Both the position numbers and the translations under genes were made by a program. This document shows positions 5,192 through 23,154 of a stretch of 64,000 nucleotides of DNA, piece after piece. The stretch lies in contig CAVTND010000008.1 in NCBI GenBank assembly GCA_963735955.1, positions 15,085 to 79,084 of the forward strand. The letters run 5' to 3'. This stretch comes from an uncultured beta proteobacterium. GTDB taxonomy: Bacteria; Pseudomonadota; Gammaproteobacteria; Burkholderiales; Burkholderiaceae_F. Below the pieces are notes generated by a model. The model was not told the origin of the DNA, did no database searches, and was given only the letters and a program-made list of their open reading frames with translations. The first letter of the stretch is position 1. Each line of letters opens with the position of its first letter.

Positions 5192-5458
5192 ATGAAGATT
5201 CGCTTTTTGAGCGCCGCCGCGGCGCTGCTGTTCTCCGCCGCTGCACTGGCTTTTCACTGCCCGGCCGACATGAAGAAGATCGACGACGCGATGGCCAAGA
5301 ACCCGAAACTGACGGAAGCCCAGATGGCCGAGGTCAAGAAATACCGCGCCGAGGGCGAGACGCTGCACAAGGCCGGCAAGCATCAGGAGTCGGTCGACAC
5401 GCTTGCCAAGGCGATGAAGATCCTCAACATCTCAGTAGTTGCTCCCTGCGCGAGATGA
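5192..5458 (+). CDS. Small exported helical protein (hypothetical)
   Basis: Signal peptide MKIRFLSAAAALLFSAAALA, then a Lys/Glu/Ala-rich helical 60-aa body. Followed directly by a rho-independent terminator. Confidence 0.6.
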   Translation: MKIRFLSAAAALLFSAAALAFHCPADMKKIDDAMAKNPKLTEAQMAEVKKYRAEGETLHKAGKHQESVDTLAKAMKILNISVVAPCAR

Positions 5459-5486
5459 CGCCGCCTGCGGGCGGCGTTTCTTTTTC
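5458..5486 (+). terminator. Rho-independent terminator
   Basis: ACGCCGCC-tgcg-GGCGGCGT stem-loop followed by TTCTTTTTC. Confidence 0.7.
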
Positions 5487-5507
5487 ATCGACTCGAGACG
5501 CACACTG

Positions 5508-8249: not shown

Positions 8250-8284
8250 AGCAATTCCCGCGGCTTGATTCGTCTCGCATGCCC

Positions 8285-8345
8285 TTTTCAGAGGGAGAAA
8301 CGACGTTGTTCACAGCGCAATTTCCCTCTGAAAACCTGCTTTTTT
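8285..8345 (+). terminator. Hairpin plus T-tract downstream of the helicase gene
   Basis: TTTTCAGAGGGA (8285-8296) pairs with TCCCTCTGAAAA (8323-8334). The loop is long (26 nt). A TTTTTT tract follows at 8340-8345. Confidence 0.45.
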
Positions 8346-8530
8346 CCTCTTGTAATTCGTTGCGTTTGCTCTAGGATCGCGTTCACGCAACGAGAGCGCT
8401 CTTGATTATTCATTCGAGAACGCTGTCGCTGTGGCATTCAACTTCCTGTAAGGAGATACTCGATGGCAACGCCAAAAAGGCAAAGAAAGCTGCGAAGAAG
8501 TCCGCCAAGAGAGCCGCGCCGAAGAAGGCG

Positions 8531-8851
8531 ATGAAAAAAGCGGCACCGAAGAAGGCCGTAAAGAGGGCGGCACCGAAAAAAGCCGCAAAGAAGAAGGTCG
8601 CACGCAAGCCGAACGCTGCCTTCATGCGTCCGCTGATGCCGACTGGCCCGCTGGCCGCGATCGTCGGCTCGGTGCCGATGCCGCGCACCGAGGTCACCAG
8701 CAAGATCTGGGCGTACATCAAGAAGAACAAGCTGCAGGACTCGGTCAATCGCCGCATGATCAACGCCGATGAGAAACTGCGTGCGTTGTTCGGCAAAGCT
8801 CAGGCGTCGATGTTCGAACTGACCAAGTACGTCAGCAAGCACCTGAAGTAG
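8531..8851 (+). CDS. SWIB/MDM2 domain protein with Lys/Ala-rich histone-H1-like N-terminal tail
   Basis: C-terminal ...PRTEVTSKIWAYIKKNKLQD..NRRMINADEKLRALFG...MFELTKYVSKHLK is a typical bacterial SWIB domain, preceded by AAPKKA-type repeats. The frame is open back to 8402. The best SD+ATG (AAGGAG-N7-ATG at 8463) is one nt out of frame, so the true N-terminus is probably longer (see findings). Confidence 0.8.
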   Translation: MKKAAPKKAVKRAAPKKAAKKKVARKPNAAFMRPLMPTGPLAAIVGSVPMPRTEVTSKIWAYIKKNKLQDSVNRRMINADEKLRALFGKAQASMFELTKYVSKHLK

Positions 8852-8881
8852 CCGCCTCCGGGGCTCTCCCGGACCGCAGTC

Positions 8882-8921
8882 AAATCGCCCGGGGGCATTT
8901 CGGCCCGGGCGATTTGTTTTT
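8882..8921 (+). terminator. Rho-independent terminator
   Basis: AAATCGCCCGGG (8882-8893) pairs perfectly with CCCGGGCGATTT (8904-8915), followed by gTTTTT. Confidence 0.75.
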
Positions 8922-9038
8922 CCGGCCCAGCCCGCTTCGCGGTTGACTTGGCCCGAGACTTTGTCAAGACTGGCGCCGTCGCGGTCGTACGGCCCGATGC
9001 CGTAGACCGTTTTTCGGTGTCACTGACAGGAGACCACC

Positions 9039-9530
9039 ATGGCCAGCCGTACTCGCAAGAGCGCCGCCAAACGAATCCGCCGCGCGGCACCTAAGAAAGC
9101 TTCGACCGCAAACGCCGCGATGTCGGCAGCGACTGCTCGGCGCGGCCTGGGCGAAGTATTCGGGAAGATGCAGCTGACGCAAGTCGCGGGCAAATTGATC
9201 GAGGGCCGCCGCCGCGACCTGGATGCAATACTCGAAGCCAACAAGAAGTCCTATCAGGGCTTGCAGTCGGTGGTCGAGCGCCAGACCTCGATGCTGAAGG
9301 AATCGATTGCTCAATGGCAGTCGGTCGCGAAAATGATGTCTACCAGCGGTCCACGCGAAAGCATCTCGAAGCTCGATGAGCTGGCAAAGCAAAGTTTCGG
9401 CATGGCGATCGCCAACATCCGGGAACTGGCGGAGTTGACCGCGCGCTCGCAGGCGGATGCATTCAACGTCGTCCGCCAGCGGATTCGGGAAAACATCGAG
9501 GAAGTGACCCAGCTGTTGAATCGCCGCTGA
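9039..9530 (+). CDS. phaP: Phasin family protein (PHA granule-associated)
   Basis: 163-aa all-helical protein. The segment ...NKKSYQGLQSVVERQTSMLKESIAQWQSV...ELAKQSFGMAIANIRELAELTARSQADAFNVV... is typical of the TIGR01841-type phasin pattern. Confidence 0.8.
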   Translation: MASRTRKSAAKRIRRAAPKKASTANAAMSAATARRGLGEVFGKMQLTQVAGKLIEGRRRDLDAILEANKKSYQGLQSVVERQTSMLKESIAQWQSVAKMMSTSGPRESISKLDELAKQSFGMAIANIRELAELTARSQADAFNVVRQRIRENIEEVTQLLNRR

Positions 9531-9565
9531 CGTGGCGCGGTAATCCGGCAAAACCGAAGTGGCGC

Positions 9566-9588
9566 GACGACGCACTGAGTGCGTCGTC
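9566..9588. terminator. Hairpin between convergent genes (possible bidirectional terminator)
   Basis: GACGACGCAC-tga-GTGCGTCGTC, a perfect 10-bp stem. No strong T-tract. Confidence 0.45.
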
Positions 9589-9613
9589 CGCTGTGTCGGG
9601 CAATCTCGGTCGG

Positions 9614-10255
9614 TCAATCTTGGCGTGAGACGAGGGTAATGGCCTCGGGGCGTTGCGCGACCAGGACTTCGTGCCAGGGCAGGCCGCTCCGCTTCCAGCC
9701 GGGTGCGACCAGACCTGCGCGGTCGGCGCCGCCCTCGAAGCCGCCCGCAACGACACTGACGTCGAGATAACCCATGGTCTGCAGCGCGATCGCCGCGCGA
9801 TGAGCTAATTCCCCGTTTCCGCAGATCAGCATGATCGGCATCGAACGGCCGCCGCCCCGGGAGAAGACCTCGCTATCGATCCGGGCGATGAAGCCTGAAC
9901 CGGGAAGTGTCGGCTGACCCAAAGGATTTTCGGCCCGGACGCCCAGTTCGCGGAACGGCACCACGGCGTCGACCCCTTCCGGCTGGCCCCGGGCTGCATC
10001 GCGGTGACTGCGCAGATCGACAAACAGCAAGACCTCCCCGCGCCGGATCTTCAGATCCCAGGCTTGTTCAGGCGTAAGTTCGGCGACCTGGACCGGCACT
10101 GCCGCGCGCTGGTCGCAGCTCCCGAGCGGCGCGTCGATCACATTTGCTGGGCAGGCATCATCGGCCAGTACCTGGGCTGCTGAAGATGAACTCCAGAGCA
10201 CGAAGACCACCAGGGCCGGGATCAATCGCCTAAAGCGGGCGCGCGGTGCAGACAT
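9614..10255 (-). CDS. Periplasmic rhodanese-domain protein
   Basis: Signal peptide starting at the internal ATG 10255 (MSAPRARFRRLIPALVVFVLWSSSSAAQ). Rhodanese-like active-site loop LICGNGELAHR. C-terminal GG..GW pattern. Confidence 0.75.
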   Translation of the reverse strand: MSAPRARFRRLIPALVVFVLWSSSSAAQVLADDACPANVIDAPLGSCDQRAAVPVQVAELTPEQAWDLKIRRGEVLLFVDLRSHRDAARGQPEGVDAVVPFRELGVRAENPLGQPTLPGSGFIARIDSEVFSRGGGRSMPIMLICGNGELAHRAAIALQTMGYLDVSVVAGGFEGGADRAGLVAPGWKRSGLPWHEVLVAQRPEAITLVSRQD

Positions 10256-10287
10256 GGTTCGACGTCCATCCAAATGATGCAAATGGG

Positions 10288-10569
10288 CTATGCCCGATCG
10301 TCGAATCCGCTTGTCAGACACCTGGCAAAGTAGGCGCTGCAATCAGGCGCGTCAGCCAGTTCGGACGCTGGCAGATCGGGGGCCGGGCGGGGACGGAAAT
10401 CGAAGGCTTCGGCCGAGTTCGGTACCAGGCGACCCCAGTCCCGCGCTCCGCCAGCCAGGGTAAACACTCCAAATAGTGCGATGACGAGTCCACCGGCGCT
10501 GGAACGCCAGTGCGCAGACAGCCACGACGACTTGCGCCGTGGTCGATGCTCTAAACGCCCCTGGTTCAT
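10288..10569 (-). CDS. Possible small single-pass membrane protein (hypothetical)
   Basis: ORF lies 32 nt upstream of, and co-directional with, the rhodanese gene. It has one hydrophobic segment (GGLVIALFGVFTLAGG). No family recognised. Weak call. Confidence 0.3.
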   Translation of the reverse strand: MNQGRLEHRPRRKSSWLSAHWRSSAGGLVIALFGVFTLAGGARDWGRLVPNSAEAFDFRPRPAPDLPASELADAPDCSAYFARCLTSGFDDRA

Positions 10570-10751
10570 TGTCTTCCCCGCGATCTGCCGGTAGATCCTG
10601 GCGCGATGCGGCTCTGCGCGGATCCACTTGCCAGTTACGGTAGGCGCCAGCGTGGACATTCGCGAGGTGCGTATGCGGCGGCGCTTCTGTCGACTATTCG
10701 ACGGCGCAGTCCGGGCGAAGGTGTTGCCCGGGCCAGGACGGCAATGAAAAG

Positions 10752-11336
10752 CTAGGCGTGCGCCCAGCGCGAATGGCGCGGCAGCGAAGCCTGCAGGAAC
10801 GCCATCTGGTCAGCGAGGATGCGGCGATTGCTGAGAATGAAGCCTTCGTTGCGGCACACGGCGTAGGGAACATAAATCAAGGGCATGTGTGCTTCTTCCG
10901 GTCGCCGGTTGCCCTTGCGCGTATTGCACGAACGGCAGGCGGTCACCACGTTGGTCCATTCGTGACGGCCGCCGCGCGATACCGGCGTTATGTGCTCGAC
11001 GGTGAGGTCGCCCTCCGAATAGTGACTGCCACAGTAGGCGCACACCTGACGATCGCGGGCGAACAGGCGATGCTTGGTCAACCCCACGTGCGCATGACCG
11101 AACGGAATCCGGTGCCGGCCTCGAATCATGACGATCGAACTCGTCAGCAGCTCTGAACGCGCGCCCGTGGATTCCTGCACGCCGCCCACCATCCCGAACA
11201 CGCTCTCGCCCAATTCGGTCAGGACTTTCCCCGCGGCGTAATAGCGTGCCGCCCGTTGCATCAACGCCCAGCGGACCGGTTGCCCGTGGGAGTCAATGAT
11301 CAGGATCTTCGGTACGTACTCCGTCGCATGCAGCAT
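10752..11336 (-). CDS. HNH endonuclease family protein
   Basis: CAYCG...LTVEHITPVSRGGRHEWTNVVTACRSCNTRKGN is a complete HNH/zinc-hook motif. The N-terminal 90 aa are uncharacterised. Confidence 0.8.
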   Translation of the reverse strand: MLHATEYVPKILIIDSHGQPVRWALMQRAARYYAAGKVLTELGESVFGMVGGVQESTGARSELLTSSIVMIRGRHRIPFGHAHVGLTKHRLFARDRQVCAYCGSHYSEGDLTVEHITPVSRGGRHEWTNVVTACRSCNTRKGNRRPEEAHMPLIYVPYAVCRNEGFILSNRRILADQMAFLQASLPRHSRWAHA

Positions 11337-12896: not shown

Positions 12897-13283
12897 ATGC
12901 ATCGACCGCCTGTGCTTTGCCTGCTAGTTCTGCTTGCCCCTCTTGGGCACGCACCTGCCCTTGCCGCCGACAGCGGTTTTGGTCGGTTTGCAATTGAGGT
13001 GCGGGACAAGGGCGCCACCGAGCGCTGTTTGAAGCTCGAGGCTGGACAGTCGATTCGCTACCGATTCAGCGCGACGAGCCCGGTTGATTTCAACATTCAT
13101 TACCACCTCGGAGACGAGGTTCGCCAGCCGATCGAGCGCAAGGCAGTTCATGCGCTGGATGGTGTGTTTCGCGCCGAATCGACTCAGGATTACTGCCTGA
13201 TGTGGGAACGGCGGGAATCCGGCGGCGTCAGGATCAACGGCCGGATCGAACCGCGCCGAGCAGCGGCGACACGCTCGCCCTAG
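12897..13283 (+). CDS. Exported hypothetical protein (possible GOLD/emp24-like beta-sandwich)
   Basis: Signal peptide MHRPPVLCLLVLLAPLGHAPALA begins at the internal ATG 12897. The mature 105 aa contain two Cys and an alternating beta pattern. Confidence 0.55.
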   Translation: MHRPPVLCLLVLLAPLGHAPALAADSGFGRFAIEVRDKGATERCLKLEAGQSIRYRFSATSPVDFNIHYHLGDEVRQPIERKAVHALDGVFRAESTQDYCLMWERRESGGVRINGRIEPRRAAATRSP

Positions 13284-13333
13284 CGCGCGGCGCACCACCC
13301 GCGCGGTGCTCCAGCCAATGGTCGTATCAATCC

Positions 13334-14884
13334 ATGACCGAAGAGATCGAACTCAAACTTTCTGTTGCCGCGTCCGACATCAACCGCATTCGGCGTCGCG
13401 CGGTGCTGACCGGGGTCGAGCCCCAAGTGAAGCACTTGATGGCGAGCTACTTCGATACCGCAGATCACTTGTTGCGAACACGCGGACTGGGCCTGCGCCT
13501 GCGCCGGGAAGGCAAGCGCTGGGTCCAAACGCTCAAGGCAGGTCCGGCGACGGGCAGCTCGCTGACGAAGCGAAGCGAGTGGGAGTCGGCGGCGCGCCTG
13601 GTGCAAGCCCGGCCGCAGATCGATCTGTCGCTGTTGCGCGGATCTCCGTTGCCGCGTCTGTTGGCGCGGCGCGGTGGAGTCTCGGCACTGACCCCGGTGT
13701 TTCAGACGCGCGTGGTGCGCACGACCTGGATGCTCGACTACAGGGGCGCGCAGGTCGAAGTGGCGCTCGATGTCGGCGCACTGGTCGCGCGGCGAGGCGG
13801 CCGGCGTCTGGTTGAGCCAATCAGCGAGCTCGAAATAGAGCTCAAGTCAGGCAAGCCCGCGCGCTTGCTGGAACTGGCGATCGAACTGGTCGGACACGGA
13901 CGCGACTCGGCCACGTTGCTTCCGCTTGCGCGCAGCAAGGCCGAGCGTGGCTATGCACTGGCGCTCGGTGAGAGCGCGCCGACGGCGAAGGCAAGCGCCG
14001 GGGGATTCCGGGAAAGCGTCACGCCGGACATGCGAACGACCGAGGTTCTGCGTGCCGTGATCGCACACGGAGTCGCTGTCGTCGTCGCCAATGCCGAGGC
14101 GGTGCGTGGGACTTATGAGCCCGAACACATACACCAGGCGCGCGTTGCACTGCGGCGCATGCGTTCGGCGGCGCGATTGCTTGATCGCCAGCAACGCGAC
14201 CTGCGACCGAAGCTAACTGTCGAGCTGCGTTGGATGACGCAGGCCATCAATGCCGCACGCGACTGGGACGTGCTGGTCGATTCAACGCTGCCGGCCTGGT
14301 CGGAGTCAGCGGCGGGAAACTCCGCGCACGCCCAACGCTTGCTCATCTCGGCGGGCCGACGGCGCGAAGCCGCACGCGCCGCTGCCGTGGCAGCTTTGTC
14401 GTCACACCGCTATGCCCGAGCGGTGCTTGGATTGCAACGGTGGAGCTTGTCGACGCCGACGTCGGGCCCGGCCTTGCCGAAGTTCGCGCCGCGCGCTCTG
14501 GGCCGTGCCCACGCCCGGCTGTTTGAAGCGGCCCGATTTCTGACTGCCTCGTCGCCTGAAAGAAGACATCGCGTGCGCATCCTTGCCAAACGTCTGCGCT
14601 ATGCGCTCGATGTGCTTGGGGCGGCCCTTCCTTCGGAGGCAGTCGCCGACTACTTGAACCGGCTCGCGAATCTGCAGGACGAACTCGGCGCCTTGAACGA
14701 TCTGGTGGTTGCACAGCAACTCATCGCCGCGATTGGCTCGTCTTCTGACTTTGCTGGATTGATGCGCCCGTGGGCGACGGCCAAAACTGCAGATCTGCTG
14801 GCTCTGGCGGAACAGCGACTCGCCGCGCTCTATGCGACGACCGCTCCCTGGGCCCCGGAGGTACAACCTAGCGCAGGCGCGTAG
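13334..14884 (+). CDS. CYTH and CHAD domain-containing protein (triphosphate-tunnel / polyphosphate-associated)
   Basis: Starts MTEEIELKLSV (the CYTH EIE.K signature). The C-terminal half is helical with HQARVALRRMRSA and RILAKRLRYALD, typical of CHAD. Confidence 0.8.
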   Translation: MTEEIELKLSVAASDINRIRRRAVLTGVEPQVKHLMASYFDTADHLLRTRGLGLRLRREGKRWVQTLKAGPATGSSLTKRSEWESAARLVQARPQIDLSLLRGSPLPRLLARRGGVSALTPVFQTRVVRTTWMLDYRGAQVEVALDVGALVARRGGRRLVEPISELEIELKSGKPARLLELAIELVGHGRDSATLLPLARSKAERGYALALGESAPTAKASAGGFRESVTPDMRTTEVLRAVIAHGVAVVVANAEAVRGTYEPEHIHQARVALRRMRSAARLLDRQQRDLRPKLTVELRWMTQAINAARDWDVLVDSTLPAWSESAAGNSAHAQRLLISAGRRREAARAAAVAALSSHRYARAVLGLQRWSLSTPTSGPALPKFAPRALGRAHARLFEAARFLTASSPERRHRVRILAKRLRYALDVLGAALPSEAVADYLNRLANLQDELGALNDLVVAQQLIAAIGSSSDFAGLMRPWATAKTADLLALAEQRLAALYATTAPWAPEVQPSAGA

Positions 14885-16883
14885 CCCCGATGTCCACGTT
14901 GACGGTGTCGCGCACTGGCACCTCGACTTCAATGCGCCCTTCGTTGACCAACATCCAGGGCAACGGAAGGTTGTCCGGCATCACGGTGATCACGTGTCGA
15001 CCCGACGCAACCGAAGGAAACTCGAATCGACCTTGACCGTCCGTACGAACCGAATAGCGGCCGTCAATGATCACAGTCACATTCGCGGCGCCTTGCTCGC
15101 CGGCCGCGAAGCGCCCGTCGTCATTGGTGTCGAGGAAGACCACACCCGAGATCCGCCCGGCCCCTCCTCCGATCAATCCGCCGAGCGGCGGCGCCATACT
15201 TCCGGCGCGGGTCTCGTAGCGCAGGATGACAAATGCGCCGCGGTCGTTGATCTTTTCCGCGGTCAGCTGAGTGAGCGTGTCGATCTGCGAGGTGACCAGC
15301 AATGGCACCTGGGAACGCGTCTGGCTGCGATACAGCGTGCCGATCAACTGCAGCTCCGGCAGGAAGCGCCAGGTGATGGCGAGATTGCCGTTCAGCGTCG
15401 TCGGTTGCGCCTCGCCGGTGCTGCTGGTCCATTGAGCGTTGATATCGATCGACAGATTGGTGGCGATGTCACCGCCGCCGAACACCGCGAGGCCGAACTG
15501 GTTCGAACTCAGGTTGAGGTCGCTATAGCGGCCAACCAGTACTGTGGTGTTTAATCGGGTACCCGCGGGCATGTTCCAGGTCTGATTGGCAGTTAGCGCG
15601 ATGTCGCGCTTCGGCGAATTTTCCGCGACCGAGACTTGGGTTCGACTGACCAGGGCCGGCAAGGTGTTCTCGACATAGGCAAATGCCGACCACGCGTTGC
15701 TGCCATCAAAGCGCGCACTGCCACCGCCGCCGATCCCGAGGTCCTGCCAGACCTGGTAACGGGCGCTGCCGGAGACAAAGGTGCTGGGTTCGAAGTCGCT
15801 GCCGTTGAGTGGTGCGGCGTAGTCGATGTATGCATCCCACAACCACTGGCGGCTACCGTAGTTGACGCGGTAATAGGCGCCGCGCGCGTTGCTTCCGACC
15901 GGCTGATTGCCCCAGGCGAGCCCGCGCCCGAGGTAGAACGCTCCGAAGCCATGGCCAAAGCGGCCGTCCTGGATGTAGCCGTCAGCCCATGCGCCCTGTT
16001 GGTTGCCGGTGAAACTGTTGTTGCTGCCGAGCGCATTGAATTGATACCGGTGCGTCGCGTCCTGCCATGCGGCGGATCCGAACCACGAGCGCGACGAAAA
16101 TTGAGTTGCTTCGTCCTCAGGCTGCCAGGGACTCGTGACCTCGCGGGCACCGAAGTACTGAAGTCCTGCTGACCAGTTGCGTGTCAACGCCCACTGACCA
16201 CCGGCGGTGGTCATGGTGCCGCCGAGCCGCCGGAATCCCGGTACGTAGATCCCGGTGTAGACCCCGGGCTCGCCCACTCCGGCAGTCAGTTGCGTGCCAT
16301 CCGGATTGCGCCATTCAGTTGAAGCACCCAACAATGGCGAAGTCGGCAGGAACCAGCGCGGCTGGAAGCGCGCGAGATCAATCGACGGCGAGTTCAGGTT
16401 GCCAGCGCCATTGGTAGCGCGCCAACCGCCATCAAACGGCACGTCGCGCTGCCACAGCGTCGCAATCGATGAGTCTTGAGTGTCGCCGAACACGCCCTCG
16501 AAGCTCAACGCACCATACAGTGGCGTCGCGACGAAGGCACCGATGCCGACACCGGCCCTCGAATCCGTCGTGCCGTTACGCGTCAACCGCGAGTAGATAC
16601 CGTCAAGCCGAAGCCCTCGCGGCAGTCCGTCGGCGTTGCGCGCCGGAATATCACCGGTCCAGACATCGGGCTCGAGTTGTCCACCCTCGATCAACTGATC
16701 GTCGTAGGGTGGGGCGTCGTTCGTGCCGTTCTTTCCGTTCTTGCCGGTCGCGGACTCGAGCGCGTCTCCGTTTCCGCTTTTGGTTCCATTCGAAGCAGGC
16801 GCAACCACACTCTGCGCTGCAACCGGCGCGGCAGACGCAGCGCTGGCGATCAGGAGCAGCCAGGCTGCTGCGCTGCGCCGCAT
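14868..16883 (-). CDS. 671-aa outer-membrane beta-barrel-like protein with C-terminal CarboxypepD_reg-like domain (candidate pore/usher of the fibre operon)
   Basis: Signal peptide MRRSAAAWLLLIASAASAAPVAAQ. The long Gly/aromatic-rich stretch has alternating beta-strand character. The last 85 aa or so (GRISGVVFLDTNDDGRF...GRFEFPSVASGRHVITV) look like a CarboxypepD_reg fold. No usher motifs recognised. Confidence 0.65.
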   Translation of the reverse strand: MRRSAAAWLLLIASAASAAPVAAQSVVAPASNGTKSGNGDALESATGKNGKNGTNDAPPYDDQLIEGGQLEPDVWTGDIPARNADGLPRGLRLDGIYSRLTRNGTTDSRAGVGIGAFVATPLYGALSFEGVFGDTQDSSIATLWQRDVPFDGGWRATNGAGNLNSPSIDLARFQPRWFLPTSPLLGASTEWRNPDGTQLTAGVGEPGVYTGIYVPGFRRLGGTMTTAGGQWALTRNWSAGLQYFGAREVTSPWQPEDEATQFSSRSWFGSAAWQDATHRYQFNALGSNNSFTGNQQGAWADGYIQDGRFGHGFGAFYLGRGLAWGNQPVGSNARGAYYRVNYGSRQWLWDAYIDYAAPLNGSDFEPSTFVSGSARYQVWQDLGIGGGGSARFDGSNAWSAFAYVENTLPALVSRTQVSVAENSPKRDIALTANQTWNMPAGTRLNTTVLVGRYSDLNLSSNQFGLAVFGGGDIATNLSIDINAQWTSSTGEAQPTTLNGNLAITWRFLPELQLIGTLYRSQTRSQVPLLVTSQIDTLTQLTAEKINDRGAFVILRYETRAGSMAPPLGGLIGGGAGRISGVVFLDTNDDGRFAAGEQGAANVTVIIDGRYSVRTDGQGRFEFPSVASGRHVITVMPDNLPLPWMLVNEGRIEVEVPVRDTVNVDIGATRLR

Positions 16884-16889
16884 CGCGCC

Positions 16890-17690
16890 TTACTCGAAGC
16901 GATGCTCGAACGGCACGCGTGCGCCCGTCCATTCGAGGGTGCCGCGTACCGTCGCGGGCAGCGACACGTCGATCCGCTCGTTGTTGCTCGACTGCGCCGA
17001 AAGCTCGAGCAAACGAGTTTCTCCTGGAAGGATCGGGAATGTGGACGGTGCGAAATCGAGTTCGCGACCTTGCGCATCGGTGCCGGTCAGGAATCCGCCG
17101 ATGCGGCCGTGTGCATTTCCGGTATTGCGAACCAGCAGTGTTGGAACCCGCTTGCCGGCCAACGTGGCAACCTCCGCCTTGAGGATTTCGAGTTTGGGCG
17201 CCGCGTCGCCGACGGCCGCATAGACGATGACGCCGATGCGACCGCGCACGGGAATCTTGAATGCGCCGCCGCCGGCCACTGCCGGCTCATCGCCTTCGAT
17301 CATCAGGGCGAACCGGCATTCGCCGGCCGGTGCATCGTCCGGGGGAGAGATTTCGAAGCGGAAACGAACCCGCGAGCCGCCCGGAATCACCAGCTCGTTG
17401 CGTTCAATTGCTACCCACGGCCGGCAGCTGCCCGGCCGAAGATCGTCGTGAAACGTGACGCTGGTGTCCGTGCCGAGCGACCAGTCCGCAGTGCGTATCC
17501 GATAGCGTGCTGGCTGCGATCCGGCGTTGGAGATCTCGACGACGTGGCGTGCGCGGACTCCCGGCGCCGCGGTGATCTCGAAGCGCGGTGGCGACACGAT
17601 AGCGTTGAAGCCCTGGGCTGATGCTGAAGTCATGCAGCACAGCCAAGTCAAGGCGGCGAGCGCAAAGGTTGAAGTGCGAGTCAGGGTCAC
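16890..17690 (-). CDS. Periplasmic PapD-like chaperone candidate
   Basis: Signal peptide (M)TLTRTSTFALAALTWLCCMTSASA from the GTG at 17690 (TTG at 17714 is also in frame). Two-domain beta pattern (VSPPRFEI...RHVVEISNAGSQPARYRIRT...PW..I.P.E..IPGGS.R.FRF). Lies 6 nt upstream of the OM protein gene. Confidence 0.5.
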   Translation of the reverse strand: MTLTRTSTFALAALTWLCCMTSASAQGFNAIVSPPRFEITAAPGVRARHVVEISNAGSQPARYRIRTADWSLGTDTSVTFHDDLRPGSCRPWVAIERNELVIPGGSRVRFRFEISPPDDAPAGECRFALMIEGDEPAVAGGGAFKIPVRGRIGVIVYAAVGDAAPKLEILKAEVATLAGKRVPTLLVRNTGNAHGRIGGFLTGTDAQGRELDFAPSTFPILPGETRLLELSAQSSNNERIDVSLPATVRGTLEWTGARVPFEHRFE

Positions 17691-17694
17691 GGCG

Positions 17695-18162
17695 TCAGTC
17701 GATGTCGATCTCAAAGTGAAAGTTCAGTCGGTGGCCACTGCTCAGCCGGGTGCCGTCGGTTTCGATCCTCAGGACCAGAGTCTCGTCGAGCACCGGCGTG
17801 GTGATCGGTCCGGCGTAGACCAGCGCGCGTTGGCCCGACACGAGTTGCCCCGGCAGCAGGCGCCCCTGGGTCGTCCAGCTGGAGCGGACCTGTCCATGCG
17901 ACTGCTCGGGCAGGACCAGGAACAGGCGGCCACTGCGCTTCAGCCACGGTGCGAGGTTGAGTCTCACCTGCACGGTCGTCGCTCCTTCGACCGTGTTGTC
18001 GCCGCCGCGCGATGGCGCCAACTGGCGCCACCGCAGAGTGGCCGAGCTTTCCTGCGGAATAGTCGCGCTGTCGTCGACTCGAAAGGTCGCCGCAGCGACG
18101 CCGTCAGTTGAGAGGGTTACCCAGACGAGCACACCGGCCGCAAGCAGAATACGGAGGCTCAT
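17695..18162 (-). CDS. Secreted 155-aa protein of the fibre operon (hypothetical)
   Basis: Signal peptide MSLRILLAAGVLVWVTLSTDGVAAA. The ATG at 18162 overlaps the upstream stop (ATGA). No family recognised. Confidence 0.55.
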   Translation of the reverse strand: MSLRILLAAGVLVWVTLSTDGVAAATFRVDDSATIPQESSATLRWRQLAPSRGGDNTVEGATTVQVRLNLAPWLKRSGRLFLVLPEQSHGQVRSSWTTQGRLLPGQLVSGQRALVYAGPITTPVLDETLVLRIETDGTRLSSGHRLNFHFEIDID

Positions 18163-18797
18163 GGTGCGGTCAACGTATACGTCACGGTGCCGGTGAACGT
18201 GCCAGCGGGAACTACCGCGGTGTTGCGATACGAGAAGGTCTGGCAACTCTCAGCCCACTGATTGCGATTGATGGTGCCGATGGTCTGTGTGCCGCCGGTG
18301 AAACTTCCCGCCGGAAACGGCTGCGCGCCGGTGTCGCCGATGCCACTGCTGGTCCACTGAATCTGCGTGAACGGAATCGCGTCGCCCCCGGCATTGGTTA
18401 GGGGGGTCGACGATGTGGCCGTCAGCGTGGCACCCGCACCGGCGGCCGTATTGGTGATCCGGTAAAACCCGCCGACGTACAGTTGGCCAGCGCTGCAGAA
18501 CGTGAAGTTGTCGTAAAAGCTGTTGGTGGCGCCGGTGTTCGACGCCATAGCCTGCGCCGTTCCGCTGCCGACAGCAGCCGCGGGAACGTTGACCGAAACG
18601 ACGTTGACGGTCGGGTTGGCGGCCGGAGTGCCACCGGAGTTATACAAGCCGGTGAACGAACCGACCCCGATCTGCAAGTAGATCACACGGGGACTGCCGG
18701 CGCTGATGTTGACGGTGAACGCGTTTGCGTTTACCGCCGCAAGGCTGCCCACGCCACCGAAGACGAGCCCAAGTATTCCGGTTCGAAGTCGATGCAT
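18159..18797 (-). CDS. Secreted fibre subunit-like protein B (212 aa)
   Basis: Signal peptide ...GSLAAVNANA|F. Gly/Thr/Ala/Asn-rich with two Cys. Shares YLQIGVGSF, DAIPFTQI and the C-terminal GTFTGTVTYTLTAP with subunit A. Confidence 0.6.
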   Translation of the reverse strand: MHRLRTGILGLVFGGVGSLAAVNANAFTVNISAGSPRVIYLQIGVGSFTGLYNSGGTPAANPTVNVVSVNVPAAAVGSGTAQAMASNTGATNSFYDNFTFCSAGQLYVGGFYRITNTAAGAGATLTATSSTPLTNAGGDAIPFTQIQWTSSGIGDTGAQPFPAGSFTGGTQTIGTINRNQWAESCQTFSYRNTAVVPAGTFTGTVTYTLTAP

Positions 18798-18863
18798 GCC
18801 GTACCCGCGGGTCCCCGTGAGTGCACGCGCCGCGGCTGCGCCGGCGCGTGCGTTCGCGGGAGC

Positions 18864-19442
18864 TTACGGTGTGGTCGCCGTGTACGTCACCTGGCCGGTA
18901 TACGCACCCGAGGCCGGTGTGACCGAGTTCAGGTACGAGTACGTCCAGGTGCCGTTGACGTTGACGACCTTGCCAGAGGCCGTATATGTAGTCGTGGCAC
19001 CATTGATCGCCGGATGTGTTGCGCCACCGGTTACGGCGACGGCAATCTGGGTCCACGGAATCGTGTCGGCGCCACTCAACAAGTTCGGGTTGCCGGAAAC
19101 CGCCCCGAGTGTCATGTTGCCGTTGTTGCCGACGACGCGCACAGTCACGGCACCGCCGGTCAGGTTGCCGCCCGTCCCGGCGACCGCCGTGCTGTTACCG
19201 ACGCTCGCGGCCGGGACGGCGAAGTCGACAGTGTCGATCGTTCCGTTCGCCGCCAGAAACGTTCCGGTGCCGACCTGCAGAAACACGAACTTCGGAATCG
19301 TCACCGAAAAGTTGACCCGGGCCGATGCGGTGATGTTTGCACCGACGCCGGTCGTAAAATTCGATTCGGCCTGAGCTGCGAACGGTACCGCCAGCGCTCC
19401 AGCAACCGCGGCGGCGAGGATCGTGGTGCGATTGTGTTTCAT
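18864..19442 (-). CDS. Secreted fibre subunit-like protein A (192 aa)
   Basis: Signal peptide MKHNRTTILAAAVAGALAVPFAAQA|E, then an extra N-terminal alternating segment. Contains FLQVGTGTF, DTIPWTQI and the C-terminal GAYTGQVTYTATTP. First gene of the operon. Confidence 0.6.
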   Translation of the reverse strand: MKHNRTTILAAAVAGALAVPFAAQAESNFTTGVGANITASARVNFSVTIPKFVFLQVGTGTFLAANGTIDTVDFAVPAASVGNSTAVAGTGGNLTGGAVTVRVVGNNGNMTLGAVSGNPNLLSGADTIPWTQIAVAVTGGATHPAINGATTTYTASGKVVNVNGTWTYSYLNSVTPASGAYTGQVTYTATTP

Positions 19443-19989
19443 CAGTTCTCCTGGCGGGGCTTGGCCCTGGGCTAGTGCTCTTCGATTCGACGGTCAGCCT
19501 TACAAGTGCCGGGACTGACCGCCATCAATGTCGTGGAGGCCATCCGGCCCCATGAACGGAGTGCATCGTACCGAGTACGCGGTATCCGGAAGGGCTGAAA
19601 TGGCGGCTGCGCTTGCTCCATTTCAGTGTGGTCCGGTCCTGATCGGCACGATTAGCACGACAAACGCAGCCACCTCGTTGTTTGGTCCGATCCAGCGGAC
19701 CGCGGGATGCTTGAGCGTCGGCCGATGAGCACTTGAGTGGCTGTTGACGGCCTCGGCTGCGACCAATTCTTTCCGCACGCCGGTGTACGTGAACCCGCAC
19801 TTCGGTTGGTCGATTTCCTGATTCTTCGTCACTGCCGACGAACGGTTTGCCGCTCGTCGGGCGCCGCATGCCTCGCGCGTGTGCTTGCTCAAGAAAAGCG
19901 CCGGCGATTCCGTTACCTCGGGAGATTGCAGGCCGCGCAATTGCGGTGTCATTGCCTGACCTTACAGAACGGATTCGACGCTCCTCATC

Positions 19990-20429
19990 ATGTTGCACGC
20001 CGTACCTTCCGCATCCGCGCGCGGCTTCACGCTGATTGAGGCACTGATTGTTGTGACCATGCTCAGCATCCTGGCGGCGATCGCGATTCCCAATTACTCG
20101 CGCTACGTGACGCGCGGGCAACTGGTCGAGGCGACCAACGCGCTTGGCGAGTTTCGCGTGCGCATGGAGCAGTTCTATCAGGATAACCGCAGCTATCAGA
20201 ACGCGGGCGGTGGCTGTGGCGCCGCGGTCCCGGCCAGCCTCTCGAACTTTGCCGTGACCTGTGCGATCGCGGCGGCAGGTCAGGCATACACGGCGACCGC
20301 CACAGGCGCGGCAAACACGCTGGCTTTGTCTACACGATTGATCAAGCCAATGTGCGGGCGACCACAGCCCTGCCTGCACATTGGGGAAGCCTGCCGGCCG
20401 ACGCGGCCACTCGATGGGTGACGCGATGA
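19990..20429 (+). pseudogene. pilE: Type IV pilin PilE-like (minor pilin), one frame change near the 3' end as sequenced
   Basis: Prepilin leader MLHAVPSASARG|FTLIEALIVV. After about 20315 the pilin-like C-terminus GFVYTIDQANVRATTALPAHWGSLPADAATRWVTR continues in another frame. It ends at TGA 20427-20429, which overlaps the next start (ATGA). Confidence 0.8.
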
Positions 20430-21007
20430 GTCGAACCATGATCGCAATGACGCGCCAACGCGGCGTGACGATTGTCGAGACTGTAGTCGTCATGACCATC
20501 GTGGCCATCCTGTTTAGTCAGGCGGTCCCGCTGTTCTCCTCATGGATCGGCAACGCCCAGACGCGCACGGCGGCGGAATCGATTCTCAATGGAATGCAAC
20601 TTGCACGCGGCGAAGCGATTCGACGCAACCGCATGGTGCAGGTCAGTCTGACCGCGGGAACTCTGCCATCGTGGACGGTGGGCTGCGCCAATCCGATCGA
20701 CAATGGCACGCCGGGAATCGATGACCCCGGTGACTGCCTTGCGGTCATCCGTGCGCGCCCTTCAGCCGAGAGTTCGGATCAGCCGCAGCTCGCGGTCGTG
20801 CCGGCGGACGCCAACACCGTGACCTTCGACTCGCTCGGCCGCATGACGGCGAATGTCGACGGTTCTGCCACTCCGGCCACGATCGACGTGGCCAATCCGG
20901 GGGTCAGTGCAACCGAGCGCCGCGTGCTGCGCCTGGTCATGGGGGCGGCCGGCGATGTCCGAATGTGCGACCCGGCTCTTGCCGCCGGCGATCCGCGCGG
21001 ATGCTGA
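20426..21007 (+). CDS. fimT: GspH/FimT-family minor pilin
   Basis: Leader MSRTMIAMTRQRG|VTIVETVVVMTIVAIL. Contains ...AAESILNGMQLARGEAIRRN..., typical of FimT/FimU. Confidence 0.8.
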   Translation: MSRTMIAMTRQRGVTIVETVVVMTIVAILFSQAVPLFSSWIGNAQTRTAAESILNGMQLARGEAIRRNRMVQVSLTAGTLPSWTVGCANPIDNGTPGIDDPGDCLAVIRARPSAESSDQPQLAVVPADANTVTFDSLGRMTANVDGSATPATIDVANPGVSATERRVLRLVMGAAGDVRMCDPALAAGDPRGC

Positions 21008-21018
21008 GGTCGGGCCCG

Positions 21019-21444
21019 ATGATCGCCACTCGACGATCCTTGCCTTCGACGCAGCCGAAACGCGTCCGTGGCATGTCGCTGGTCGAGGTCCTGGTCGCCG
21101 TGGTCGTGTTTGCGGTCGGCGTGCTCGGCCTGTTCAACAGTCATGCATTGGCATTCAACACTTTTTCGGACGCCAAGTATCGAGTCGATGCAGCGCTGCT
21201 GGCCGACCGGCTGATTGGCGAGATGTGGGTCGATCGCGCCAACGTCGCGACCTATGCCTTCAGTGGCGGCACAACGACTGTTGGGCGACTGGCACCCTGG
21301 CTGGCCGAACTGCGCCAGACCCTGCCGGCAGCTGATGCCACAGTCGTTGTCGTCGGCAACGTCGTTACCGTCACCGTCAGTTGGCAGACGCCGTCCAACG
21401 ATCGTCACCGCCACGTTGCAGTCACCACGCTGCAGGAGCCCTGA
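21019..21444 (+). CDS. pilV: Type IV pilus modification protein PilV
   Basis: Leader ...KRVRG|MSLVEVLVAVVVFAVGVLGL. Size and operon position fit PilV. Confidence 0.8.
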   Translation: MIATRRSLPSTQPKRVRGMSLVEVLVAVVVFAVGVLGLFNSHALAFNTFSDAKYRVDAALLADRLIGEMWVDRANVATYAFSGGTTTVGRLAPWLAELRQTLPAADATVVVVGNVVTVTVSWQTPSNDRHRHVAVTTLQEP

Positions 21445-21445
21445 C

Positions 21446-22519
21446 ATGTTGCGCGGGCTACGCGCTTCGAGGGGCATGACGCTCATCGAGGTGTTGATCG
21501 CGATGGTGGTCTCGCTCGTTGTCACGATGGCTGTCTATCAGACGCTGGCGTCGTCGGAGGCCTATCGGCGCGCGGCCACCGGCGGTGGCGACGCAACCTT
21601 CAATGGCTCGATCGCGATGTACACCATGCAGCGCGATCTGCGAGTGGCGGGCTTCGGTCTCAACTCGGTCGATATTCTGGGGTGCCGCTTGTTGGTTTAC
21701 GACAGCGGAACCGATCCGGTGCGCGAATTCAATTTGACACTGGCCCCGGTCCGGATCACCCAGGGCGTCGCCAATGCACCCGACACGATCGAAGTGATCT
21801 ACAGCGGCACGGATGCGGTGCCGGCCCGGTCCGCCTGACCCAGGCGCTGCCCAGCGCGACCTCAGACTTCTATATCGACAATGCCTTCGGCATCGTGGCT
21901 GGCCAGTTGCTGATCGTCGCCGAGCCTGGACAGGATTGCACGCTGGTGCAGGCGACCAATACGCCCAGCCTCGAACCACCGGGCCGCCAGGACTTGCTGA
22001 CGCACGGCAGCGGCATGTATCGCAGCCCGCTACGGCACGATGGTCGCGTCGCGTTACAACAAGCCCGGCGGACTGGGTCCGAACTACACCCTGTCGCGGC
22101 CCTGTTTCCGATCGGCCCGGCACCCACGGTCAACCGGTACTCGATCCAGAACGAGACCTTGGTCATGGATCAGACACTACTGCGGCCGTCGGCCTGCCGG
22201 TGGCCACCGCTGTAGTGCAGTTGCAGGCCCAGTACGGCAAGGACACCGACAACGACGGCGTCATCGACGTCTGGGACGAACTCACGCCCAACACTGCCAA
22301 CGGCTGGGCCGGCGTGATCGCCATCCGACTCGCGCTGGTCTCGCGCAGCGCGGTCCCCGAGCGCCCAAACGCGGCAGGCGACTGCGACGCCACCACCACG
22401 GCGCCTAATTGGGCTGGTGGGGCCATTGATCTGACGGCACGGGCCGACTGGCGCTGCTTCAAGTACCGCGTCTTTGAGTCGACGATCAGCCTGCGCAACA
22501 TGATCTGGAGGCCGGATGA
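21446..22519 (+). pseudogene. pilW: Type IV pilus assembly protein PilW, about 4 frame changes as sequenced
   Basis: Leader MLRGLRASRG|MTLIEVLIAMVVSL. The body continues across frames near 21830, 22035, 22095 and 22185. The conserved tail VVQLQAQYGKDTDNDGVIDVWDEL...AIRLALVSRS...WRCFKYRVFESTISLRNMIW ends near 22515. The exact stop is unresolved: the frame runs on to 22871, while a TGA at 22517 would give an ATGA overlap with pilX. Confidence 0.75.
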
Positions 22520-23154
22520 GTTTGCGCGGCCGCCCGAAGGACGTATTCCCGTTGGGTGTGATGGCGCAGCGCCAGGCGCGTGCCTTGAAGTCGAAGCTGC
22601 CGCGTCGGCAGCGCGGCGCCGTGCTGATGGTCGTGCTGGTCGCACTGATCGCGATGCTGATCTCGGTCATCGCCTTGAGCCGGTCGATGGATACGCATCA
22701 GCTGGTCGCCGGCAATCTCGCGTTCCGCAATGCGGCGGTCCACTCGTCGGACGCCGGCGTCCAGGGCGCGGTGACCTGGCTCCAGGCCACGGTCGGCACT
22801 GCAACACTGAATACCAATGCGCCCAATCGCGGCTACTACGCGCAGCTGATCGAGCCCAACTGGGACGATGACTCGGTCTGGAACCAGTGCGCCACGTGCC
22901 GCATCGTCCAGGACGGCGCCGGCAACACCGTCCAGTGGATCACCCATCGCATGTGCTCGGCGCAGGGCAATCCGAATGCCGCCGGCGTTTCCTGTTCGCT
23001 GCTGACGGCGGGCTCGCCGCCGCGTCCGGCGGCAGCTATGTCAAGCGATGCCACCAACTTCACCGGCACCGCGCAGAACTATTACCGCATCACGGTCCGC
23101 GTGCAGGGACCGCGCAACACCAACACTCTGGTCCAGGCCTTCGTTTCCCTCTGA
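22516..23154 (+). CDS. pilX: PilX-like minor pilin / pilus assembly protein
   Basis: RRQRG|AVLMVVLVALIAMLISVIAL N-terminal PilX-type helix. Intact 212-aa ORF ending 13 nt before pilY1. Confidence 0.7.
   Translation: MSLRGRPKDVFPLGVMAQRQARALKSKLPRRQRGAVLMVVLVALIAMLISVIALSRSMDTHQLVAGNLAFRNAAVHSSDAGVQGAVTWLQATVGTATLNTNAPNRGYYAQLIEPNWDDDSVWNQCATCRIVQDGAGNTVQWITHRMCSAQGNPNAAGVSCSLLTAGSPPRPAAAMSSDATNFTGTAQNYYRITVRVQGPRNTNTLVQAFVSL

Follow-up and report, generated by a model that had tools for sequence, protein, structure and literature searches.

Results and Discussion

Organization of the Operon

The five-gene operon described here, a candidate system for the assembly of a surface fibre, lies on a stretch of 64,000 nucleotides, hereafter the window, from an uncultured beta proteobacterium (GenBank assembly GCA_963735955.1, contig CAVTND010000008.1, positions 15,085 to 79,084; all coordinates below are those of the window unless a locus of another genome is named). 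Its genes, named g1 to g5, are all carried by the minus strand and encode two subunit-like proteins (g1 and g2), a small orphan protein (g3), a chaperone-like protein (g4) and a predicted outer-membrane barrel protein (g5).

According to the list of open reading frames, g1 extends over 18864-19442 (192 aa), g2 over 18159-18797 (212 aa), g3 over 17695-18162 (155 aa from its ATG), g4 over 16890-17690 (266 aa from a GTG, the TTG-extended frame reaching 17714) and g5 over 14868-16883 (671 aa). Base-by-base reading of the junctions shows that g1 and g2 are spaced by 66 nt, that g2 and g3 overlap by an ATGA at 18162-18159, that the TGA of g3 (17697-17695) is followed after 4 nt by the GTG of g4 at 17690, and that the TAA of g4 (16892-16890) is followed after 6 nt (16889-16884) by the ATG of g5 at 16883. 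The tight packing of five minus-strand genes that had been described in the first-pass annotation, which was made from the letters alone, is thus confirmed in its coordinates, gaps and overlap. A start of g4 at the GTG 17690 (266 aa) or at the TTG 17714 (274 aa) is backed by orthologues; the public gene call (P0091, 247 aa; affected stretch 17631-17690) begins at an internal ATG, so that the signal peptide is lost.

g1 and g2 Are Paralogous, Putative Pilin-Like Subunits

g1 and g2 share 33% identity by BLASTP (E = 1e-12) and are matched at 99.6% by hhalign. Their paralogy, already proposed from a series of shared motifs that are indeed present in both proteins, is therefore well founded. g1 (18864..19442, minus strand), the putative major fibre subunit, has a Sec signal peptide at residues 1-25 and a mature protein starting with an invariant Glu-Ser, and g2 (18159..18797, minus strand), a protein of 212 aa with two cysteines, is a candidate minor, tip or initiator subunit.

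The mature g1 protein was modelled by AlphaFold2 with 116 homologues, at a predicted local distance difference test (pLDDT) of 94.6. When this model was compared with 350,542 PDB chains, 49 of its 50 best fold matches were chaperone-usher pilins, the pilins matched being FimF, FimG, FimA, CfaB, Caf1, PapA, CsuA/B and CS17. The fold of g1, as modelled, is a pilin-like, immunoglobulin (Ig)-type one, in line with the earlier proposal that the subunits are pilin-like rather than of another globular fold, although the matches are weak. At the sequence level, neither g1, g2 nor the 116 g1 homologues match any Pfam or NCBIfam family, the fimbrial subunit families Fimbrial and SCPU included, and a search of g1 against the PDB gave nothing useful with the single sequence and nothing significant with the family profile.

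Both ends of mature g1 have the features of interest for a donor-strand mechanism. The N-terminal segment ESNFTTGVGANITASARVNFSVTI (19296..19367, minus strand) is, from its translation and the alignment of orthologues, a candidate donor strand, with an alternating small/hydrophobic pattern A-I-A-A-V-F-V-I that is conserved in orthologues. The alternating strand V-x-F-x-V-x-I-P of g1 is paralleled by one at the start of mature g2, and what is unique to g1 is a stretch of about 15 further N-terminal residues (ESNFTTGVGANITAS) that is absent from g2. The extra segment of about 20 residues that had been attributed to g1 only is thus real and conserved, but its g1-specific part is limited to these 15 or so residues; as g2 also begins with an alternating strand, a donor strand exclusive to g1 would be too strong a claim. 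At the other end, the model closes with the C-terminal strand GAYTGQVTYTATTP (18867..18908, minus strand), in which a Gly stands 14 residues before the C-terminus and the terminal T-T/A-P is conserved; its pattern G-x-Y-T-G-x-V-T-Y-T-x-T-x-P is kept up to the C-terminal proline. Its residues Y162, T163, A164 and P167 are invariant or nearly so. The C-terminal strand also resembles, not significantly, the second WxL motif Y-x-x-T-L-T-W-x-L-x-x-x-P.

g4 Is Related to EcpB and to WxLIP Proteins

g4 (16890..17690, minus strand) encodes a periplasmic, chaperone-like protein with two predicted Ig domains, whose signal peptide is cleaved before QGF. No match to the chaperone families PF00345 and PF02753 was obtained with g4 and 37 homologues, which gave only weak Ig-type matches (HYDIN/VesB Ig, ASH, MSP, NEW3), and nothing useful was found in the PDB with either the single sequence or the close-family profile. 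The family is nevertheless a large one, as a profile search of 1.84 billion representatives retrieved 3037 relatives at E <= 1e-3. With a diverse profile of 60 sequences, the PDB search reached EfmWxLIP1 (9i25, 9i1y) at E = 3.7e-6. When compared by hhalign with nine plasmid-borne WxLIPs, the g4 family was matched at 97.3% (E = 2.4e-11); the 223 aligned columns take in the two Ig-like domains. The distant relatives of g4 also recurrently show sub-threshold matches to PF06030 (WxLIP_PGBD, DUF916), at best 24.0 bits for a cut-off of 27.3; this family is absent in g4 itself. WxLIPs are described as having two perpendicular Ig-like domains and a membrane helix, and a strand of WxLIP is predicted by AlphaFold2 to insert into the WxL partner domain (PMC10599100). 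g4 has no C-terminal transmembrane helix and ends in VPFEHRFE, with no hydrophobic tail.

The g4 family is also matched by hhalign to EcpB (PDB 5DFK), the chaperone of the E. coli common pilus, at 90% (E = 1.7e-6) over 163 columns. This relation emerged after the Ecp chaperones had been separated, the comparison with eight pooled E. coli chaperones giving only 5.8%. Moreover, FimC-type chaperones are matched, in a colinear alignment, by a merged profile of g4 and WxLIP at 50% (E = 1.6e-4), compared to 11% for the known-true relation between FimC-type and Ecp chaperones when tested with the same thin alignments, and controls of the g4 profile against the subunits, g3 and ushers remain at 0.4-3%. 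As WxLIP and Ecp chaperones compared directly reach 0.2%, the proteobacterial family acts as a bridge between the two, and these profile comparisons suggest that the WxLIPs of Gram-positive bacteria are relatives of pilus chaperones.

The residues known to matter in EcpB were then located in g4. In EcpB, Arg89 and Arg148 serve as anchors for the subunit's C-terminal carboxylate, Arg89 having the same role in CsuC, and A111, A113, A115 and I117 have been established by mutagenesis as donor-strand residues (PMC4654587). Arg89 aligns with g4 R126 (17313-17315), an arginine in 55 of 60 sequences, and Arg148 with g4 R196, invariant in all 60 and contained in the motif NTGNAHGR (17103..17126, minus strand), the counterpart of NTGNATLR in EcpB. 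The four donor-strand residues align with I146, V148, G150 and I152 of g4, whose columns are conserved as L/F/V, V/I/L, G/A and I/L/V, respectively. By this mapping and column conservation, the segment IPVRGRIGVIV (17223..17255, minus strand) is a candidate G1 donor strand.

g4 is thus best described, as judged from profiles and alignments, as a non-classical, EcpB/WxLIP-related chaperone-like protein without membrane anchor, whose place best fits a broad PapD-like/WxLIP superfamily. Its likeness to two-domain PapD-type chaperones, pointed out from its beta pattern alone in the first-pass annotation, stands as far as the two Ig domains are concerned, a two-domain Ig fold being indicated by the homology to EcpB and WxLIP; its nearest relatives are, however, EcpB and WxLIP, not classical PapD.

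g5 Is a Predicted Outer-Membrane Barrel of Usher-Like Architecture

The outer-membrane protein g5 (14868..16883, minus strand) is composed of a signal peptide (residues 1-17), a disordered region (18-81), a barrel (89-560) and a beta-sandwich (575-669). Its AlphaFold2 model, built from 49 sequences, has a pLDDT of 80 and a predicted template modelling score of 0.67. The beta-barrel (15204..16619, minus strand) contains 26 long strands, a number that counts DSSP elements of a predicted model and is hence approximate (about 26). With an even number of strands, N-terminus and C-terminal domain would come to lie on one side of the membrane and the sandwich in the periplasm, so that both termini are presumably periplasmic. 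The C-terminal Ig-like sandwich (CarboxypepD_reg/SdrD_B-like; 14877..15161, minus strand), which had been noticed before as CarboxypepD_reg-like, is backed by the model and by sub-threshold SdrD_B and CarboxypepD_reg matches at residues 578-635 in a Pfam scan.

Two parts of g5 could be of functional importance. The conserved motif PPYDDQLIEGGQLEPD (16665..16712, minus strand), 16 residues within the disordered N-terminus, has an invariant D62 and nearly invariant I65 and L70, and we infer it to be a candidate docking site for chaperone-subunit complexes. The loop formed by residues 165-182 (16338-16391), between strands 5 and 6 and with a short helix, is among the best-conserved parts of g5 (R176 is invariant; L170, R172 and Q174 are invariant or nearly so) and could be a pore-constricting loop.

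When the g5 model was searched against the PDB with Foldseek, as had been suggested for this 671-aa protein, the ushers FimD and PapC came first, with E values from 2.6e-13 to 1e-8, alignments of about 670-735 columns and low template modelling (TM) scores of 0.28-0.40; they were followed by MtrB (TM-score 0.42), Occ porins, TonB receptors and LptD. The single-sequence PDB search gave nothing useful. No PF00577 usher match was obtained for g5 even at E <= 1, and the Pfam domains precomputed for 90 homologues include none, so that the absence of a canonical usher in the operon, which a full-length PF00577 match would have contradicted, holds. g5 is usher-like in its architecture, a barrel followed by an Ig-like domain, and stands outside the usher family by the searches made for membership; either it descends from an usher from which it has strongly diverged, or the barrel was recruited independently.

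g3 Is an Orphan, Conserved Component

g3 (17695..18162, minus strand) encodes a secreted, beta-rich protein of 155 aa. It has no Pfam match, its family profile gave nothing significant in the PDB, and it is unrelated, by hhalign, to the subunits, the chaperones, the ushers and the LPXTG proteins of WxL clusters, in agreement with its first description as a secreted protein of no recognisable family. It is present in 72 of 72 complete loci (see below), and the motifs IDDSGT, W-x-T-Q-G-R-L-x-P-G and F-H-F-E-x-D are conserved in its family. Rather than Gly/Thr/Ala-rich, g3 is charged in composition, with much Trp and Arg, which argues against a surface subunit. By analogy with two-component barrel systems, one could speculate that g3 is an in-trans plug or an adaptor for the barrel.

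The Five-Gene Order Is Conserved in Proteobacteria

A word-indexed search with g5 retrieved about 90 clusters, all of them unnamed, "hypothetical" or annotated as "carboxypeptidase-like regulatory domain", and when one genome per species was scanned, 183 genomes proved to encode g5. Nearly all the hosts are metagenome-assembled genomes (MAGs) of Burkholderiaceae, Steroidobacteraceae, Usitatibacter(aceae), Nevskiaceae and unclassified Gammaproteobacteria; Arenimonas alkanexedens is a cultured carrier. By tblastn with the five proteins, about 80 related loci show the order g1 (one or two copies)-g2-g3-g4-g5 wherever the upstream DNA suffices, a recurrence that goes beyond chance. In 72 species-level genomes the locus is complete, each gene being matched at >= 70% coverage. 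Across the genomes compared, the operon shows no link to metabolic or transport genes, and tblastn of g4 and g5 against plasmids gave zero matches.

Over these 72 loci, the median identity to the window proteins is 42% for g1, 55% for g2, 47% for g3, 53% for g4 and 41% for g5. Of the five genes, g1 varies most, and 7 of the 72 loci carry it in duplicate; g2 is better conserved. A variable, sometimes duplicated major pilin accompanied by a conserved minor pilin is the usual pattern in pilus operons, and the behaviour of g1 and g2 was therefore counted in favour of a major/minor pilin pair.

Some loci show variations of the operon. In A. alkanexedens (L001), where the cluster occupies 5450-9968, an extra gene of 273 aa (9965-10786), without Pfam match and absent from the window, follows the barrel gene with an overlapping stop and start. 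In a branch whose barrel protein has 767 aa (L002, 3088-3567), an additional gene of 159 aa lies between g1 and g2, and weakly resembles the g1 profile, in its N-terminal part alone (E = 3.5e-11). In four MAG loci (L007, L012, L014 and L067), g2, g4 or g5 is matched in adjacent pieces and in different frames, which are probably assembly frameshifts rather than pseudogenes.

Beyond these loci, the distant relatives of g4 (about 23% identity) are accompanied, in the loci examined, by one or two small proteins encoded 5' and by a barrel protein of 742-903 aa encoded 3', the latter carrying SdrD_B/CarboxypepD_reg-type domains. The first gene of two such clusters, L099 and L100, matches the g2 profile (E = 4e-12 and 2.7e-5, respectively). 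The barrel protein of L099 (8869-11097, 742 aa) has two copies of the C-terminal sandwich of g5, and that of L100 (8851-11562, 903 aa) has two copies and, in addition, a C-terminal OmpA peptidoglycan-binding domain. In another locus (L102, 2266-4711), a gene for a g4-like protein of 263 aa, matched to the g4 profile at E = 7.7e-41, stands directly 5' of the F and G genes of type II secretion, with no barrel or subunit genes.

Comparison with Known Systems

None of the five proteins, tested alone or as family alignments, reaches a Pfam or NCBIfam cut-off, including those of PF00577, PF00345, PF02753 and PF05229. The view that the operon could not be placed in a described fimbrial clade is upheld, since no chaperone, usher, SCPU or other characterised fimbrial family was matched. 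In addition, no described Gram-negative system of the DUF916 type or with a non-canonical usher was found in the searchable literature.

The operon is nevertheless similar to chaperone-usher pili in its gene order, with a major subunit, a further subunit, a two-Ig chaperone and a barrel with a C-terminal Ig-like domain; in the EcpB-like features of g4, namely NTGNA..R, the equivalents of Arg89 and Arg148 and an alternating G1-type strand; and in the fold of g1, which matches CsuA/B, CfaB and Fim pilins. It differs from them by g3, which has no counterpart there, by the missing two-domain adhesin, by the Tyr169 and Pro60 equivalents, which are not conserved in g4, and by its barrel: ushers have 800-880 aa and g5 only 671, with no profile similarity to EcpC or other ushers. 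The Gram-positive WxL/Csc clusters (small WxL, large WxL, WxLIP, i.e., DUF916 plus DUF3324, and an LPXTG protein) contain in WxLIP a homologue of g4 over both Ig-like domains, have, like the operon, two paralogous partners and a small protein beside the Ig protein, and share with it a strand of the Ig protein that is predicted to insert into the partner, as proposed here for g4. They differ in that g4 has no membrane helix, no WxL domain is detectable in g1 and g2, the operon adds a large outer-membrane barrel and its hosts are diderm proteobacteria. LptD-LptE and MtrB-MtrA, finally, have a similar strand count, a barrel without its own plug and, as with g3, a small secreted protein encoded adjacent; with no sequence or family relation to g5, the likeness is an analogy only.

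A Possible Mechanism and Its Alternatives

On balance, we lean toward the interpretation that the operon is a chaperone-usher-like, donor-strand assembly line for a surface fibre, standing outside all described chaperone-usher clades. What the analysis shows is the gene structure with its kept synteny, the paralogy of the subunits, the pilin-like fold of g1, the homology of g4 to EcpB and WxLIP with functional positions preserved, and a g5 made of a barrel plus a C-terminal domain; that a fibre is formed, that the parts bind and polymerise, their topology and what g2 and g3 do are what we infer. All five proteins would be exported by Sec. In the periplasm, g4 would capture the pilin-fold subunits g1 (major) and g2 (minor), R126 and R196 anchoring the conserved C-terminus of the subunit and the strand I146-I152 entering its open edge. 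The complexes would be delivered to g5, a barrel of about 26 strands in which the N-terminal motif and the C-terminal Ig-like domain would stand in for the N- and C-terminal domains of ushers. There, donor-strand exchange could take place, the N-terminal strand of the incoming subunit replacing the g4 strand, and the polymer would be extruded. g3 would be an obligatory further periplasmic component, maybe a plug or an adaptor for the plugless barrel.

Several of our results weigh against this interpretation. Concerning the barrel, that of ushers has 24 strands and, between strands 6 and 7, an inserted plug domain, and chaperone-subunit complexes are recruited to ushers by a folded N-terminal domain of about 125 aa in the periplasm; usher function depends on both the plug and this folded domain. 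The g5 model has neither, as no domain of about 80 aa is inserted in the barrel and residues 18-81 have a pLDDT below 50. The first rank of ushers in Foldseek may reflect only a large barrel plus an Ig domain, since their TM-scores are no better than that of MtrB, and the 49-sequence alignment of g5 is matched by hhalign at only 0.1-2.4% to the E. coli ushers FimD, HtrE, EcpC, ElfC and YehB. Concerning the subunits, the fold matches of g1 are weak (E from 2.6e-3 to 7e-2, TM-scores of 0.28-0.51, probabilities of 0.66-1.0), g1 and g2 have no profile link to pilins (hhalign below 4% against 13 E. coli subunits, EcpA and EcpD) and the first 27 residues of mature g1 are not paired as a strand in the monomer model, though their pLDDT is 79-96. 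In g4, the positions of EcpB Pro60, invariant in the superfamily and located in strand D1, and of Tyr169 are occupied by R97 and P219 and are not conserved identities, the first of them being uncertain in the alignment because of a gap of 6 residues nearby. Lastly, g3 is without assignable role and family scans detect no adhesin-type domain in the five proteins.

These points bear differently on the alternatives. The operon might truly belong to the chaperone-usher superfamily and have diverged extremely within it, and would then be a new clade but no new type of system, in which g5 would be an usher that has lost the plug and the N-terminal domain, g4 a non-classical PapD-like chaperone and g1 and g2 ordinary pilins. 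The top rank of ushers for g5, the dominance of pilins among the g1 fold matches, the match of g4 to EcpB with the anchor arginines and the donor-strand pattern kept, and the FimC-type match of the merged profile, which exceeds that of a known-true relation, are all consistent with it. We nonetheless regard it as rather unlikely, as PF00577 is not found in g5 at the relaxed threshold used, the five ushers compared by hhalign are not matched, the barrel has about 26 strands instead of 24 and neither plug insertion nor folded N-terminal domain, and the TM-scores are low. Alternatively, and with somewhat better prospects, though we would not count on it, the operon could represent a separate and undescribed class of outer-membrane fibre assembly, with a non-usher barrel of about 26 strands gated in trans by g3 and a chaperone family that is the missing link between the EcpB type and WxLIP.

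Two further possibilities dispense with the fibre. According to one of them, the operon would be the diderm, non-polymeric counterpart of the WxL/Csc complex, with g1 and g2, in the manner of the small and large WxL proteins, as surface partners held by insertion of the g4 strand and g5 as an exporter or anchor. The homology of g4 to WxLIP over both domains speaks for it, as do the resemblance of the C-terminal strand of g1 and g2 to the second WxL motif and the composition of WxL clusters, in which two paralogous partners and a small protein are also paired with WxLIP (PMC10599100). It appears quite improbable, however: g1 and g2 have no WxL Pfam match and reach at most 9% by hhalign against 13 WxL domains, for which reason the subunits were not considered as WxL domains, g3 is unrelated to the LPXTG proteins, g4 lacks the membrane helix of WxLIP, the best fold matches of g1 are polymerising pilins, and the mechanism of the WxL complex itself is not established. 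No WxL-domain structure was found in the PDB. The other possibility, which we consider most improbable, is a transport system in which g5 would be a channel for solutes or macromolecules of the LptD, MtrB or porin type and g1 to g4 its periplasmic or surface binding partners. That g5 matches large barrels in general, among them MtrB, Occ porins, TonB-dependent receptors and LptD, is in its favour, as is a strand number of about 26, the barrels of LptD and MtrB having 26 strands. However, g5 carries neither the plug of TonB receptors nor Lpt or transport domains, the fold of g1 is pilin-like and g4 is chaperone-like, and metabolic or transport genes are not linked to the operon. CxxCH haem motifs are absent (count of 0), and the idea of an electron conduit was rejected on this basis.

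Neighbouring Genes and Other Features of the Window

Upstream of g1, overlapping genes on the plus strand (19990-22900) encode proteins with the type IV pilin N-terminal motifs GFTLIEALIVV, RGVTIVETVVV, RGMSLVEVLVA and RGMTLIEVLIA, and form, as read from these motifs, a minor-pilin operon of the FimT/PilV/PilW type, divergent from g1. The back-to-back position of the two operons, to which attention had been drawn, is therefore correct, but it is a local arrangement, being found in four close relatives only (L004, L005, L007 and L012). As the flanks are conserved only in the closest Burkholderiaceae relatives and differ in Arenimonas and in the 767-aa branch, this position carries no functional weight, and a functional link to the minor-pilin operon was rejected. 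On the other side, a CYTH-CHAD gene (13202-14884, plus strand) is convergent with g5, their 3' ends overlapping by 17 nt (14868-14884); this neighbour is kept in the Burkholderiaceae group only (8 loci).

The divergent intergenic region 5' of g1 (19443-19989) has 547 nt, and a promoter is expected somewhere within it. A putative ribosome-binding site AGGAG (19448..19452, minus strand), located by reading the sequence, lies 5 nt 5' of the ATG of g1. A consensus scan of 19443-19989 found no sigma-70-like site, and a promoter and terminator scan gave nothing exceeding the shuffled expectation. An Rfam scan of the whole window (1-64000) found zero families at the gathering score. Positions 6001-8000 have 70% G+C, against 61-67% in the rest of the window.

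Implications

To our knowledge, the classification of chaperone-usher pili rests entirely on usher and chaperone families known to Pfam, and the same logic is encountered here in proteins that no curated family detects. The carriers amount to 183 species or more, most of them Burkholderiaceae, Steroidobacteraceae and Usitatibacteraceae from soil that are uncultured, with Arenimonas as a cultured addition, and about 3000 clusters of g4 relatives mark the wider superfamily. If the link between EcpB and WxLIP is true, the WxL clusters would themselves be donor-strand systems and the donor-strand principle would predate the split between monoderm and diderm envelopes. For the WxL surface complexes of enterococci, listeriae and lactobacilli, which are poorly understood, the link that the g4 family makes between EcpB-type chaperones and WxLIP gives a mechanism that can be tested, namely strand complementation. 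Should the fibres prove real, g5 would show how a fibre can be secreted without plug or N-terminal domain, and a major surface organelle of abundant soil proteobacteria would have been overlooked.

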